From an uncultured Bacteroidales bacterium (GTDB taxonomy: Bacteria > Bacteroidota > Bacteroidia > Bacteroidales > JAAYJT01), in contig CAZJZG010000008.1 of the NCBI GenBank assembly GCA_964550455.1, positions 12,486 through 76,485 on the forward strand: a DNA stretch of 64,000 nt, written 5' to 3'. Every line of letters begins with the position of its first letter. The stretch's first letter is position 1. This document shows positions 9,380 through 14,370 of this stretch, in pieces. The notes below the pieces were generated by a model. That model ran no database searches. It was not told the origin of the DNA and worked only from the letters and a program-made list of their open reading frames with translations. Made by a program: the position numbers and the translations under genes.

Positions 9380-11209
9380 TTATTCTTTTCTGTGGCCTGT
9401 AGCTCTTTCAAGTCGTTTCAGAATTGAAAAGATAAATACTGCTGAAAGGATACAAGAAACAATAAATATTGACCAAAGCTGCCATAATTCAAGTTTGCCC
9501 CAGAAATCACTTCCTATGAACAAGAATTTGTTTCCTACGGCGGTGGCAAGTAGCCAGCCACCTTGCATGAGACCCTGAAAACGAGCCGGTGCAACTTTTG
9601 AAACAAATGATAATCCCATAGGGCTCAGGAAAAGTTCAGCAATGGTAAGAATCAGATAAGTGCTTATCAGCCAGTAAGGCACAACCCTTGAAGAATCGGG
9701 TACGGGATTATACTTGGTAACACCATTTTCAACATACTGTAATTCATGTGGCGACACTAAACCAATTGATGCAATAAGGATAACTACGAACCCAATAGCA
9801 GCGATAATCATACCTATTCCAATCTTTTTAGGTGTTGATGGTTCCATATTTTTATTTCTCAGCCATGTAAATACAGCCATTACCGGGAAAGTAAGTGAAA
9901 CTATAAACAACGGGTTGAACGACTGGAATTTCTCAGGTTCAATAGGATTAATGGCAGGATTTCTTGCAATAAAATAACCTGTTAAAGCACCAAAAACAAT
10001 AGCCATGGCTCCACCTATAAGTCTATTTGAACCCTTTTTGTTGAAAATAAGCAATACTAATCCGGCAACTGCTCCTATAAATGCAAGCATTGATTCAAGT
10101 TTGAAAAAGATGTTTGTAAAAGGTCCTACATTTTTAACAGTATAGTCGCGTGCAAAGAAAGTAAGTGTAAGTCCATTTTGATGAAAAGACATCCAGAAAA
10201 ATATTACAACAACAAATACCAGTATAAGTGATGTTACACGCGGGCGTTCATCTTTGGTGGATATTTGGTACATCATTGCAACAAAACCAATAAACAGCCC
10301 AACTGCAGCACCCAAAGCCAAATCTTTCATCAAAACGAAGAAAATAACCGATGTAGCTACCATCAATCCTGCTGCAAGTAAAAAGCTAACAACATTAGCT
10401 TTAGCTTTATTCTGGGTATCTTCAGTTTTAGCAACTCTTTCAACGCTTGGTAAAAGTTTATTGAAAATAATATAAACCAGCATCGAAATAACCATTGCTC
10501 CGGCAGCTATCCCAAATGCATAATTGTATCCTTTTGAGAAAGCTGTAATATAGTTATCAGCAAAAGCATGCAGGTCTGTTACGATAGTACCGGAAACCTT
10601 ATTGGCAAGCTCCTGAAATTTAGTCATATCCTCTAGTGTTCCTGCCTCAAAAGCATGACACATAGCCGGAAGGCTTGCATCATGCTCAAACCCCTGAGTT
10701 CTCAGAAACCAGTTTCGGACTCCTGTTGCAGCATAAGGAGCGAAAAACGCACCAATATTGATCCCCATATAAAAAATCATAAAAGCAGTATCACGAACTT
10801 TTGAATAAAGAGGATTATCATACATCTGCCCTACTACAGCCTGAAGATTACCTTTAAAAAGACCATTACCCAGCGCAATGGTAAAAAGTCCGATAGCCGT
10901 AATTGCCAGAGGATTACCCGGTATTGCCATTAATATATATCCGGCAAACATGATAATGATACCCATCAGGATCACAAATTTATATTTCCTGGTAGCATCA
11001 GCAAGAATACCTCCTATAAGAGCCAGAGCATAAATACCGAAATAAAACCAGGAATAATAGTCACCAGCCTGAGATTCACTAAGCCCGTATCTGGCCTGCA
11101 AAAACAAAACCAGGATTGCCATCATGGTGTAAAATCCAAAGCGCTCTCCCATATTGGAGAAAAACGCAACCAATAACCCTTTTGGGTGTCCTTTCATCAT
11201 AGTTGTCAA
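9380..11209 (-). CDS. POT-family proton-dependent oligopeptide transporter
   Basis: GHPKGL, ExxERFxFY-like MGERFGFY, GNGLFKGN, FYMGINIGA, FQSFNP and ELFLSPMGLS motifs. Confidence 0.93.
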   Translation of the reverse strand: MTTMMKGHPKGLLVAFFSNMGERFGFYTMMAILVLFLQARYGLSESQAGDYYSWFYFGIYALALIGGILADATRKYKFVILMGIIIMFAGYILMAIPGNPLAITAIGLFTIALGNGLFKGNLQAVVGQMYDNPLYSKVRDTAFMIFYMGINIGAFFAPYAATGVRNWFLRTQGFEHDASLPAMCHAFEAGTLEDMTKFQELANKVSGTIVTDLHAFADNYITAFSKGYNYAFGIAAGAMVISMLVYIIFNKLLPSVERVAKTEDTQNKAKANVVSFLLAAGLMVATSVIFFVLMKDLALGAAVGLFIGFVAMMYQISTKDERPRVTSLILVFVVVIFFWMSFHQNGLTLTFFARDYTVKNVGPFTNIFFKLESMLAFIGAVAGLVLLIFNKKGSNRLIGGAMAIVFGALTGYFIARNPAINPIEPEKFQSFNPLFIVSLTFPVMAVFTWLRNKNMEPSTPKKIGIGMIIAAIGFVVILIASIGLVSPHELQYVENGVTKYNPVPDSSRVVPYWLISTYLILTIAELFLSPMGLSFVSKVAPARFQGLMQGGWLLATAVGNKFLFIGSDFWGKLELWQLWSIFIVSCILSAVFIFSILKRLERATGHRKE

Positions 11210-11251
11210 AGTTTTAAGTTAATAATCATTCAGATAAATTTAATTTGGGCG

Positions 11252-11259
11252 CAAAGCTA
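11252..11259 (-). promoter_or_regulatory. -7 promoter element (TAGCTTTG) of the POT gene
   Basis: TAnnTTTG match about 45 bp upstream of the start. Confidence 0.55.
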
Positions 11260-11417
11260 TGAAAAAAAACGATTTACTGAATGCGCCACTTATAACTTGC
11301 CCAGATTAAATAAACAGAACGAAACTGGATAACACAGCTAAATAAGTGCTGATTATACTATTTCTTGTCTTCATTAAAAAAATAAAGGACTTTTGTTAAA
11401 GTCAAAAAATATTTATG

Positions 11418-11425
11418 TAGCTTTG
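11418..11425 (+). promoter_or_regulatory. -7 promoter element (TAGCTTTG) of the T9SS/LTD gene pair
   Basis: TAnnTTTG match 90 bp upstream of 11516. Confidence 0.55.
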
Positions 11426-11515
11426 CAAGGAACAAACAACACATCTATTTAATCGCAATATTTCCATCATAAATATATATAGTCCAAAACCCACAAACTA
11501 ATTTAAATTTTAATT

Positions 11516-11971
11516 ATGAAGAAAACTCAGCTAAAACTACTCTGGTTGTTAACAGCATTCTTACTGCTATATCAGCCCAAAATCTGTGCTCAGGAATACA
11601 TGCGTATTAACCTGAAAAATGGCACAGTGATGTCATTTGCTTTATCGGACATTCAGAAACTCACATTTGATGTACAAACGGGTATTACTGAGCAAACTGA
11701 ACTTGTTAAGCAATTATTAAAGCTCAAAGCCTATCCCAATCCGGCTAAAGATCATGTAATTATTGAATATTCATTAATTGAACAGGGAGATGTATGGCTG
11801 GAAATTTTTAACTCCGTCGGAAACACTATCGTAAGCAAAACAATTGGATTGCAGTCACCCGGAAATCACCAGTATCAATGGTTATTGCATGGGGTTCCTA
11901 CCGGCCTTTATATATGCCGTATTAAACAACATAACCAAATCGTTAGTGAAAAAATTATTGTTAAGAAATAA
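11516..11971 (+). CDS. Small secreted protein with T9SS type A C-terminal sorting domain
   Basis: Signal peptide, ~27-aa module, TGITE linker, then CTD (AYPNPA...IFNSVG...GLYICRI...KIIVKK). Confidence 0.88.
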   Translation: MKKTQLKLLWLLTAFLLLYQPKICAQEYMRINLKNGTVMSFALSDIQKLTFDVQTGITEQTELVKQLLKLKAYPNPAKDHVIIEYSLIEQGDVWLEIFNSVGNTIVSKTIGLQSPGNHQYQWLLHGVPTGLYICRIKQHNQIVSEKIIVKK

Positions 11972-11982
11972 AAATTAGAAAA

Positions 11983-13380
11983 ATGAAAAAATTTACTTTT
12001 ACTCTTTTATGTTTTTTCCTGGCTGCTGCCAGCCTTTCAGCCCAAAAACTGAATATTTTTAAAAGCGATGGTACTATTATCAACGTTCCTTTAAACAGTA
12101 TTGACAGCATCACATTTTCAGACGAGATTCCTGCTGCCAGTGATATTCTTATGAACGAAATATATTCAAGAGGCACTGCCGATGATCCTGACTGGATTGA
12201 AATATACAATAAGTCAGATGCGCCTGTAGATATAAGCGGTTATAAAATTTATGACATTGGTGGATTTAGCGGATCTAAACCTAAAAAGGAATTTCCTGCC
12301 GGCTCAGTTGTTCCTGCTCATGGTTTTTATGTCATTATAACTGATAGAACCGATGATTCCTCAGATTTTGGTCTTTCAGCCAATGGTGAAGAAGTATGGT
12401 TCGAAGATGCAAGCGGAACTATTATTGATAATGTCACATTTGCTTATATGGATGTAACCCAGAGTTATGGCCGCCTGCCGGATGGATCGGCTAACTGGCA
12501 GTTGCTAAATATCATTACCAAGGGTGGATCCAATCAGAATACACTTACTGCAACCATTGTAATGAATGAAATATACTCAATGGGTACTAACGAAGATCCG
12601 GATTGGATTGAAATATACAACGCTTCGCCATTTGACTTCGATATAAGTGGATTTAAAATTTATGATGATGGTGGATTTAACGGAACCAAACCCAAAAAAG
12701 AATTCCCCGAAGGAACGATAATACCTGCAAATGGATTTTTTGTTATTGTTACTGATAAAACAGGCGATCCTTCAGATTTCGGACTTTCAAAAAATGGTGA
12801 AGAAGTATGGCTTGAAGATGCTGCCGGAGAAGTTATTGATAATGTAACTTTTCCTGCATTGACAGAAGATCAGAGTTACGGTCGCTTTCCTGATGGAACT
12901 GAAGACTGGCAAATTCTGAATACTGTTACTAAAGGTACTCCAAACAGCAATGTTACACCTTCGGTTTTATTTATGAATGAAGTCTTTTCACGTGGTACTG
13001 TCGAAGATCCGGATTGGATTGAAATTTATAACAGCTCATCAGGAGATATTGATCTTACCGGTTATAAAATTTATGACGTAGGAGGATATTCAGGAACTAA
13101 ACCTAAGAAAGAATTCCCCGAAGGAACAATAATTCCGGCTAATGGGTTCTATGTAATTATAGTTGATGATGATGATCCCAGCGGTTTTGGTTTAGGCAAA
13201 AATGGTGAGGAAATCTGGCTTGAAGATCCTAATGGCGTTGTAATTGATAATTATATTTTTCAGGCAATGGAAGAAACCCAAAGTTATGGTCGCCAGCCTG
13301 ACGGTACTGCTAATTTCTTTATCTTCATTGAAATTACAAAAGGTTCGTCAAATAATAATGCCGGTACTTTAGGCAAATAA
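11983..13380 (+). CDS. Secreted protein with three lamin tail domains (LTD)
   Basis: Signal peptide and three repeats of hMNEhYS.G....PDWIEIYN....DhsGYKIYD...FGLxxNGEEhWhED...QSYGRxPDG; no CTD. Confidence 0.88.
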   Translation: MKKFTFTLLCFFLAAASLSAQKLNIFKSDGTIINVPLNSIDSITFSDEIPAASDILMNEIYSRGTADDPDWIEIYNKSDAPVDISGYKIYDIGGFSGSKPKKEFPAGSVVPAHGFYVIITDRTDDSSDFGLSANGEEVWFEDASGTIIDNVTFAYMDVTQSYGRLPDGSANWQLLNIITKGGSNQNTLTATIVMNEIYSMGTNEDPDWIEIYNASPFDFDISGFKIYDDGGFNGTKPKKEFPEGTIIPANGFFVIVTDKTGDPSDFGLSKNGEEVWLEDAAGEVIDNVTFPALTEDQSYGRFPDGTEDWQILNTVTKGTPNSNVTPSVLFMNEVFSRGTVEDPDWIEIYNSSSGDIDLTGYKIYDVGGYSGTKPKKEFPEGTIIPANGFYVIIVDDDDPSGFGLGKNGEEIWLEDPNGVVIDNYIFQAMEETQSYGRQPDGTANFFIFIEITKGSSNNNAGTLGK

Positions 13381-13399
13381 TCCTTATTTTGAATTTTTA

Positions 13400-13437
13400 A
13401 AAATCAGGCGGTAAACTTAGATTTACCGCCTGATTTT
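13400..13437 (+). terminator. Intrinsic terminator
   Basis: 16-bp stem aaaatcaggcggtaaa/tttaccgcctgatttt, 6-nt loop, 20 bp after the LTD gene stop. Confidence 0.8.
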
Positions 13438-13602
13438 GTTTTAATATTTCTGAAAGTTGCTGTTTGATTTACAAAAAGTTCATGCCTTAAATATCTTCTT
13501 CGAAAGTCAAATATTTTACCTGTTAAAACCTTTGTAAATATATATCTGTGAATAAACATTACACTCTTTATAATTGTTAATCGGGATATATAAATCATCC
13601 AT

Positions 13603-14370
13603 ATGACTTTCAAAATTCTAAAAACCCAAAATCAGGATGGGATCTTTACTATTACCATCAGCCGTCCTGAAGCCTTGAATGCCTTGAACACAGCTTTCTT
13701 TGATGAAATGGACCATTTGCTTGATGATATTTCTAACGACGATTCAGTAAAAATCATCATTATTACCGGAGTGGGCAAGGCATTTGTTGCCGGTGCCGAT
13801 ATTGCCGAAATGGTAAACAAAAACAGCATTGAAGGAACAGAATTCTCTGTACGAGGTCAAAAGGTTTTCCGTAAAATGGAACACCTTGATAAACCCATAA
13901 TTGCCGCTATAAACGGATTTGCTTTGGGAGGCGGGTTAGAACTTGCACTGGCATGCGACATCAGGTTAGCTTCAGATAAAGCCAGATTCGGACAGCCAGA
14001 AGTAAATCTTGGTCTTATCCCGGGATTTGCAGCAACACAGCGGCTTCCTCGTTTGATAGGAACTGCAAATGCTTTATGGCTATTAATGACTGCTGAAATG
14101 ATTGATGCCGCCGAAGCTCTGCGTATAGGGCTGGTTCAGAAAGTATTTGTGCCAGAGGAACTAATTGAATCTGCAAACAAAATGGCACAGCTTATTCTGA
14201 GCAAAGGACCAAAAGCCGTTAAAAAAATTAAAAAAGTAGTTCGTAAAGGTATGGAAACCGATTTTGATTCGGGAAGTCAACTGGAAGCGCAGGAATTTGG
14301 CACTCTGTTCGGGAATGAGGGAGAAGAAGGGATGAGAGCCTTTCTTGAAAAACGAAAACCGGAATTCTGA
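13603..14370 (+). CDS. Enoyl-CoA hydratase (crotonase)
   Basis: AFVAGADI, NGFALGGGLELALACD and FGQPEVNLGLIPG motifs with both catalytic Glu residues. Confidence 0.93.
   Translation: MTFKILKTQNQDGIFTITISRPEALNALNTAFFDEMDHLLDDISNDDSVKIIIITGVGKAFVAGADIAEMVNKNSIEGTEFSVRGQKVFRKMEHLDKPIIAAINGFALGGGLELALACDIRLASDKARFGQPEVNLGLIPGFAATQRLPRLIGTANALWLLMTAEMIDAAEALRIGLVQKVFVPEELIESANKMAQLILSKGPKAVKKIKKVVRKGMETDFDSGSQLEAQEFGTLFGNEGEEGMRAFLEKRKPEF

Follow-up and report, generated by a model that had tools for sequence, protein, structure and literature searches.

A small T9SS carrier encoded beside a CTD-less partner suggests a piggyback route to the Bacteroidota cell surface

In a 64,000-nucleotide stretch of DNA from an uncultured Bacteroidales bacterium (GenBank assembly GCA_964550455.1, contig CAZJZG010000008.1, positions 12,486 to 76,485; hereafter the window, to which all coordinates refer unless a contig or locus is named), two adjoining genes encode secreted proteins that share a short N-terminal module. 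Gene 1 encodes a small carrier with a type A C-terminal domain (CTD) of the T9SS (type IX secretion system), and gene 2 encodes a partner, the presumed cargo, that has no CTD. T9SS substrates are today recognised by the CTD alone, and the arrangement suggests, without proving, that a small adaptor may bring a tag-less partner to the Bacteroidota cell surface by a piggyback route that has gone undescribed.

The carrier is built from a signal peptide, a module that we call A-type, a conserved linker and the CTD, with nothing else, and the partner from a signal peptide, a related B-type module and three lamin-tail domains (LTDs). An earlier note, made from the sequence and its open reading frames (ORFs), had described the two genes in this way, and the ORFs, Pfam and NCBIfam agree. 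The N-terminus of gene 1, MKKTQLKLLWLLTAFLLLYQPKICA followed by QE (cleavage at ...KICA/QE), has visible n-, h- and c-regions and an invariant Gln after the site, as read from the sequence, and is a putative Sec signal peptide; no lipobox was found in gene 1, the Cys at position −2 (ICA/Q) not being conserved in the homologue alignment. Within the module, K48-L49-T50-F51-D52 is invariant across 20 homologues and shows the signature of the carrier class, I-[QR]-K-L-T-F. The CTD matches Por_Secre_tail (PF18962) with 44.5 bits at residues 73-149 (cut-off 27) and TIGR04183 with 45.1 bits (cut-off 23), and apart from it no domain was found in the Pfam and NCBIfam scans of gene 1. A Foldseek search with the predicted model of the CTD returned at rank 2 the CTD of mirolase from T. 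forsythia (8qb1_A, TM(target) 0.66, 89 columns, E = 1.4e-3). The host genome, an assembly of 2.96 Mb in which the window lies on contig C8, encodes SprA (TIGR04189, 2664 bits) and two PorU proteins (NF033707, 1350 and 1165 bits) and contains 81 matches to the type A CTD model; judged from these genes, the organism makes heavy use of the T9SS. By its domain, its fold and the machinery in the genome, gene 1 is a type A CTD protein. The region cleaved by the sortase lies probably in the linker. The remnant of gene 1 after trimming by PorU would be about 45 residues long, comprising the module and the conserved linker (residues 26 to about 70), and the anchored peptide of about 27 residues proposed earlier has to be lengthened accordingly.

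In gene 2, K27, D29, G30, I40, D41 and S42 of the B module are invariant across 19 partners. The LTD repeats begin near residues 50, 187 and 324, with a period of about 137 residues, and carry the motif MNE[IV][YF]S..T..DPDWIEIYN; PF00932 matched in three stretches with 170.3 bits (cut-off 34.3, E = 1.8e-50). Neither Por_Secre_tail nor CHU_C nor a type B CTD was found in gene 2 by Pfam and NCBIfam at E ≤ 1, scans by which a cryptic CTD is ruled out, and no Cys that could form a lipobox lies near the cleavage site. Gene 2 lacks the CTD, the defining feature of T9SS cargo.

Table 1. Position of the genes and other features of the locus within the window.
Feature	Coordinates	Strand	Description	Basis
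Possible promoter	11392..11425	+	Bacteroidota-type, TTTG ... TAGCTTTG, about 90 nt upstream of gene 1	pattern TTTG-N17-23-TAnnTTTG
Gene 1 (carrier)	11516..11971	+	small T9SS type A CTD protein, 151 aa	ORF; PF18962, TIGR04183; conserved family of about 150 aa
Gene 1 signal peptide	11516..11590	+	residues 1-25, cleavage ICA/Q	sequence and homologue alignment; Q26 invariant
Gene 1 A-type module	11591..11671	+	residues 26-52, QEYMRINLKNGTVMSFALSDIQKLTFD	joint HMM, 46.5 bits
Gene 1 conserved linker	11672..11731	+	residues 53-72, ..TELVKQLLKLK	Q66, L70 and K71 nearly invariant
Gene 1 CTD	11732..11968	+	type A T9SS CTD, residues 73-151	Pfam and NCBIfam matches
Spacer between genes 1 and 2	11972..11982	+	A-rich, 11 nt, no terminator	sequence, terminator scan
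Gene 2 (partner/cargo)	11983..13380	+	secreted protein without CTD, 465 aa	ORF; LTD x3
Gene 2 signal peptide	11983..12042	+	residues 1-20, cleavage ...LSA/QK	sequence and partner alignment; Q21 invariant
Gene 2 B-type module	12043..12120	+	residues 21-46, QKLNIFKSDGTIINVPLNSIDSITF	joint HMM, 38.1 bits
Gene 2 lamin-tail domains	12130..13377	+	three in tandem	PF00932
Terminator-like hairpin	13400..13437	+	16 pairs, then T run, 20 nt past the gene 2 stop	

The ATG of gene 2 stands 11 nt past the TAA of gene 1, as the earlier note had it. The hairpin that follows gene 2 is the sole terminator-like site within 11200-13620, and none lies between the genes. The possible promoter upstream of gene 1 is a lead, because its pattern is not enriched in the window (6 matches against 5.3 expected). 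A split of one ancestral cargo gene is ruled out: the gene with the CTD comes first, and each gene has a signal peptide and a module of its own.

A second adjoining pair lies on contig C31 of the host genome, where a 151-residue protein of module and CTD is followed 12 nt on by a 281-residue protein of module and Fib_succ_major (PF09603), and an unpaired paralogue of this partner lies on contig C6 (G000 C6:38268-39116). A motif scan of the host genome accordingly gave five N-terminal modules (two in the window, two on C31, one on C6), that is two carriers against three partners. Elsewhere one carrier is accompanied by two partner genes, flanking it or in tandem (L013:5066-7316, L113:1266-4954, L124:1859-4539 and L051:6013-8939), the last of these in a Flavobacterium metagenome-assembled genome (MAG) in which a two-module carrier precedes two partners. 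Because carrier and partner genes are unequal in number, several partners may be served by a single carrier. Two Bacteroidales MAGs (L001 and L002) contain the public sequences most closely related to the locus in the window.

Starting from the carrier, we collected 15 full-length homologues of gene 1 from contigs representing one genome per species, which belong to Bacteroidales, Lentimicrobiaceae and one member of the Ignavibacteriaceae, and added the two loci of the host genome. At all 17 loci the next gene lies on the same strand, 10-13 nt downstream, and encodes a signal peptide, a B module (L.I[HY]K[TS]DG...IDSITF) and a body without CTD; the bodies are one, two or three LTDs, Fib_succ_major and others. 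A search with the carrier N-terminus among 151 genomes of the same order gave few close homologues, and the weaker matches belong to a commoner sister family of 160-185 residues with two tandem modules and a CTD. Directly downstream of these two-module carriers lies a module-bearing gene without CTD, at 13 of 13 loci.

The opposite direction, starting from the partner, carries no bias with regard to carriers. Run against 1.84 billion representative proteins, a profile of the partner N-terminus showed the module to head at least 626 protein clusters world-wide (50% identity, E ≤ 0.001), nearly always right after the signal peptide and sometimes in two or more tandem copies. Among the best 150 of the 626, the bodies are Fib_succ_major (34), Lcl_C (14), fn3-like (11) and Laminin_G_3 (10), with PKD, Cthe_2159, FGE-sulfatase, endonuclease and others besides. 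A CTD is present in only two of these 150 proteins. One, P0096, is itself a two-module carrier, and the other, P0091 (L120:4001-4900; also L121), unites in a single chain a B module, a body of about 115 residues, an A module and a CTD, and was seen in two samples of metagenomes; it is followed by a B-module FISUMP gene, and its body is paralogous to a 170-residue protein encoded two genes upstream. That P0091 is a frameshift fusion with a relic signal peptide is ruled out, the 'MRILCV' lying within the paralogous body domain and the sequence being the same in both samples.

Among the 151 genomes of the order, 25 of the 27 genuine B-module genes have a gene for a 150-185-residue protein of module(s) and CTD-like end directly upstream, and at eight or more of these places carrier and partner overlap by 4 nt (ATGA); one of the two exceptions is the C6 paralogue of the host genome, the other a truncated gene. 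In a phylum-wide sample of other classes the same arrangement was found at five of six places, and at the sixth a gene of modules, body and CTD lies directly downstream. Six proteins that differ in body, hand-picked from the world-wide set and located on metagenome contigs, gave a small gene of module(s) and CTD upstream in five cases. The sixth, P0148 (L130:2501-3916), is preceded with a 4-nt overlap by a gene for a 602-residue protein (L130:696-2504), whose C-terminus is CTD-like by eye, with no Pfam family recorded, and in which no N-terminal A module is recognisable; this could be a variant with a full-size cargo serving as carrier. Overall, 33 of the 34 small neighbours match Pfam Por_Secre_tail, and of 31 partners not one does. 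The 2.96 Mb of the host genome contain just five CTD matches within ORFs of up to 200 residues, so adjacency by chance would be expected at about 0.2% per gene. Across Bacteroidota the pair is conserved, with tight or translational coupling of its genes, and the surveys in the order, in other classes and in metagenomes rule out that it is peculiar to the host genome. The earlier note had proposed that a minimal carrier might take a CTD-less cargo piggyback and had named co-occurrence of the two architectures as a check. The proposal is supported in part: co-occurrence proved strongly positive over orders and classes (17/17, 13/13, 25/27, 5/6 and 5/6), and the remnant would have about 45 residues, not 27.

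Two further sets of proteins were seen alongside these pairs. A second kind of small CTD protein is encoded in the host genome at C46:11051-11515 (−) and C3:90388-91146 (+), and also at L051:8978-9445, with a mature N-terminus of the form ..LSWTVGE..(10)..L[TN]QGF[HN]Q. The neighbours in the host genome, C46:9613-10947 (+) and C3:86999-90328 (+), the latter directly preceding its small CTD gene, encode large CTD-less proteins of Fib_succ_major type that start ..F[KT]YQAV[LA]R.., and from sequence they look like another adaptor-partner pair with a different module. Separately, nine B-module proteins have aldo/keto-reductase-like bodies (P0042, P0053, P0056, P0058, P0060, P0065, P0077, P0081 and P0141), all on short contigs, and their signal peptides end ..NVQC/QKAE. 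Because of the Cys at the end of the signal peptide, they may be lipoproteins, and this would be a different anchoring of the same module.

The relation between the two modules was analysed with hidden Markov models (HMMs) of the modules only, the signal peptides being removed, run against 15,930 six-frame ORFs of the host genome. The model of the A class ranked the partners directly after the carriers and in register (E = 0.0037 for the partner on C31 and 0.16 for the partner on C8), and the model of the B class ranked the C31 carrier directly after its own members, also in register (E = 0.11). A joint HMM of 27 columns scored both classes at 26-50 bits in 44 pairs. The cross-matches and the joint HMM rule out chance likeness of the two N-termini and uphold the claim that genes 1 and 2 share an N-terminal module; on these models, the A and B modules form a single module family that falls into two distinct classes.

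What separates the classes is found at columns 22-24 of the joint HMM. All 38 partners have Asp at column 22 and Ser at column 23 (100% each), followed by Ile, Val or Ala. The first modules of carriers (n = 39) have Gln, Arg or Lys, then Lys in 87%, then Leu or Ile, and the second modules of carriers (n = 14) are Arg-rich at these columns. At column 22 the charge averages −1.0 in partners and +0.3 to +0.6 in carriers, and at column 23 it is 0 in partners against +0.9 in carriers. In the modules collected world-wide, D-S-[ILVM] occupies these columns in 149 of 165, against a background of 0.5% per position, and seven variants read E-S-[IV], by which the charge is kept. Such a sharp contrast of D-S-[IV] with [QR]-K could mark complementary surfaces for heterotypic A:B pairing. 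The partner tripeptide, D-S-I at residues 41-43 of gene 2 (12103-12111), is also an O-glycosylation sequon, the published Bacteroidota motif being (D)(S/T)(A/I/L/V/M/T) (PMC8550257), and carriers have [QR]-K-L at that place; the glycosylation and pairing readings of D-S-[IV] can both hold.

Structure prediction was carried out with AlphaFold for the carrier alone, from 20 homologues, and for a carrier together with its partner. In the carrier alone the CTD reached a pLDDT (predicted local distance difference test) of 80-90 and the module 52-59, the latter as a hairpin followed by a low-confidence helix as third element, and the linker of gene 1 was given a low-confidence helix at 61-69. For co-folding we made use of locus L003, where the two genes are in the same frame and separated by one TAA and four codons; the TAA was read as Gly, which gave one chain of mature carrier, five residues and partner preprotein, supplied with a block-structured alignment (A8). 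Two MAFFT alignments (A5 and A7) were left out, as they had aligned partner modules onto the carrier module. In the co-folded model both modules are three-stranded (E2-8, E13-17, E21-27 and E153-158, E163-167, E171-178), with a pLDDT of 56-73. The module is thus predicted, with low to moderate confidence, to be a three-stranded beta unit, and the co-folded model is a weak hint that fits mutual stabilisation of the two modules. The earlier note had conjectured that the module might be half of an Sm/SH3-like beta-barrel and could hetero-oligomerise by exchanging strands. No chain containing the module was found in a search of the PDB. The best match there joins residues 1-20 of the B module to the hairpin at the N-terminus of R1 from E. 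coli ribonucleotide reductase (QNLLVTKRDGSTERINLDKI; 2xax_A and others); it is non-significant (E about 0.6), but gives a structural analogue for the K.DG hairpin.

The best explanation of these observations, which we hold to be about as probable as its opposite, is a piggyback pairing of the carrier with its CTD-less partner, in which binding of A to B, co-export and tethering are all inferred. Both proteins would enter the periplasm by Sec and lose their signal peptides, so that each mature protein would bear a three-stranded beta module at its N-terminus. The A module would bind the B module heterotypically, the basic [QR]-K dyad of the carrier facing the invariant Asp-Ser of the partner, a binding with which the class-specific charge pattern is compatible. 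The CTD of the carrier would engage the SprA translocon, which takes folded substrates (PMC9251779), and the complex would be exported. PorU would remove the CTD and fix the carrier remnant of about 45 residues to the surface, and the partner would stay on the anchored remnant non-covalently. More tentatively, and with distinctly less assurance than the pairing itself, we consider a general second mode of cargo selection by the T9SS, in which adaptors of A module and CTD would bind a portable B tag of 25 residues and would export and hold folded, tag-less proteins of dozens of families. A literature search of limited coverage gave no description of piggyback, hitchhiker or CTD-less export by the T9SS.

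Several observations weigh against the piggyback pairing. The same literature search, limited as it was in coverage, gave no demonstration that the T9SS exports a non-covalent complex. Compared pairwise, the A and B modules are only weakly similar (E = 0.004-0.16). Singletons occur, namely the C6 gene of the host genome and one in G022, and in a genome of the same genus (G049) neither carrier nor partner was found by the order-level searches, from which the cassette must be regarded as accessory; the beta-oxidation operon of G049 has different upstream neighbours, its flanks are non-syntenic, and an empty-site comparison is uninformative. The co-folded model has a moderate mean pLDDT of 61.6, and its output consists of strands and pLDDT that were compared with the carrier alone only. 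Finally, the difference between the classes may reflect glycosylation rather than an interface.

Among the other explanations, the one that survives best, although we think it unlikely, is that both modules are parallel tags that, instead of binding each other, address a third partner common to both, for instance a receptor at the outer membrane or surface or a component of the T9SS; the role of the small protein would be that of a placeholder, a competitor or a primer of the site, and gene 2 and its like would reach the same site by their own route. The mature N-terminus does bear one fold-level motif in both classes, and partners do outnumber carriers (three to two in the host genome, two to a carrier at L013, L051, L113 and L124, and 626 or more partner clusters world-wide), both of which speak for such a shared target. 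It leaves unexplained, however, the consistent class difference at columns 22-23, the translational coupling and the near-absence of CTDs on partners, and a tag-less partner would still need a route across the outer membrane.

Somewhat less likely again is that the B module is an O-glycosylated N-terminal cap or tag that helps to stabilise or sort proteins of the periplasm, of vesicles or of the secreted fraction, and that the carrier is a non-glycosylated paralogue which has diverged and whose role at the surface is unrelated, the adjacency being a legacy of duplication. The excess of D-S-[ILVM] in the world-wide modules and its match to the published motif (PMC8550257), which never occurs in carriers, speak for glycosylation. 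Duplication alone, however, fails to predict adjacency in about 60 loci across classes, the ATGA overlaps and the unrelated bodies; the E-S-I variants lose the sequon yet keep the charge, and glycosylation would in any case be compatible with pairing.

We consider it improbable that the two proteins meet only after export, the carrier alone being secreted and anchored by the T9SS and the partner leaving the cell through vesicles, lysis or another system and then docking in the manner of cohesin and dockerin. Docking of this kind would give the same adjacency and the same two-class pattern, and cellulosomes do dock many different bodies onto an anchored module, but the partners have neither a lipobox nor a CTD nor another NCBIfam secretion domain, and a protein with Sec export only would be periplasmic. 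Least probable of the four is that the small protein is a periplasmic regulator or chaperone rather than an exporter, either reporting T9SS activity as PorA does, a small T9SS cargo that signals through its CTD to PorY within the periplasm (PMC12152298), or holding the partner module until the carrier is exported, for which the poor order of the carrier module alone in AlphaFold could be taken as a sign: the active part of PorA is its CTD and PorA has no module-sharing partner, whereas in the present pairs it is the N-terminal module that is conserved and specific to its class, every carrier has a structural-type partner gene of its own coupled to it, and the bodies of the partners (LTD, FISUMP, LamG, beta-helix, lipase, CotH) are typical domains of extracellular proteins.

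If the piggyback pairing is true, it would amount to T9SS cargo selection through a separate adaptor, to which we give an even chance. Secretome predictions for Bacteroidota would then overlook a class of surface proteins of at least 626 clusters, with FISUMP, lamin-tail, LamG, beta-helix, lipase and CotH bodies. The translocon would be shown to pass non-covalent complexes, and the A and B modules would form a compact, genetically encoded docking pair for surface display. Should the more tentative general mode of cargo selection hold, the catalogue of T9SS substrates, defined as it is by the CTD, would be systematically incomplete, and the A/B pair would be a natural two-part display system. 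Even without co-export, the conserved cassette with its module of two classes is widespread and unannotated, and needs explaining.

Set beside known systems, gene 1 resembles type A CTD cargo such as RgpB of P. gingivalis and mirolase of T. forsythia, attached by PorU and PorV, in having a putative Sec signal peptide and a type A CTD, but its passenger is only about 45 residues long, without enzymatic or adhesive domain, and it is obligatorily paired with a CTD-less gene that bears a sister module. In P. gingivalis, the small T9SS cargo PorA (PGN_0123) has a CTD with a regulatory role and is found at the surface both bound to anionic lipopolysaccharide (A-LPS) and bound to PorV (PMC12152298). 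Like gene 1 it is a small CTD protein whose role is unlike that of an ordinary effector; unlike gene 1 it is 246 residues long, of which about 135 make up the passenger, it exerts its action on PorY by way of the CTD, and no neighbouring partner shares an N-terminal module with it. Type B CTD cargo is encoded with cognate PorP/SprF-like genes, as for SprB and SprF, so that a cargo-specific helper is found beside its cargo (PMC9143113). In that case the CTD belongs to the cargo, and the helper forms a barrel in the outer membrane, whereas here the helper is a soluble protein of 150-185 residues that has the CTD and the cargo has none; gene 1, with 151 residues of module and type A CTD, is no PorP/SprF-type helper, and gene 2 is without a type B CTD. 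The N-terminal domain of Leptospira LA_0442/LA_0875 (Lepto_7_Nterm, NF047433) gave weak, in-register matches at model positions 33-61 in 18 of the best 150 partners (best E = 9e-5), with 14.8 bits for gene 1 (residues 26-51) and 11-15 bits in the host genome; all scores are at most about 20 bits against a cut-off of 43, by which membership in this family is ruled out and a resemblance only is left. To our knowledge, Leptospira has no T9SS.

Cellulosomes are the familiar case of modular docking of many bodies onto one anchored module. As in the proposed pair, cohesin and dockerin combine a short portable docking module on unrelated bodies with a complementary module on a surface-anchored protein. 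There the anchor is a surface-layer homology (SLH) domain or a sortase, whereas here it would be the T9SS and A-LPS, and a single family of about 25 residues, placed at the mature N-terminus, supplies both modules. The sequences are unrelated, and neither a cohesin nor a dockerin (PF00404) was found in Pfam scans of the two genes, 150 partners and 34 carriers. The closest precedent in logic is the hitchhiker export of the twin-arginine translocation (Tat) system, known for the small and large subunits of hydrogenases, together with piggyback import into peroxisomes, where a signal-less protein crosses folded with a signal-bearing partner, by way of a translocon open to folded substrates (PMC9251779). 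The proposed mechanism would follow the same logic at another membrane, with other machinery and another signal, and has no sequence relationship to either. In both precedents the partners are subunits of one enzyme, whereas here a dedicated minimal adaptor would be matched with a portable module that serves dozens of unrelated bodies.

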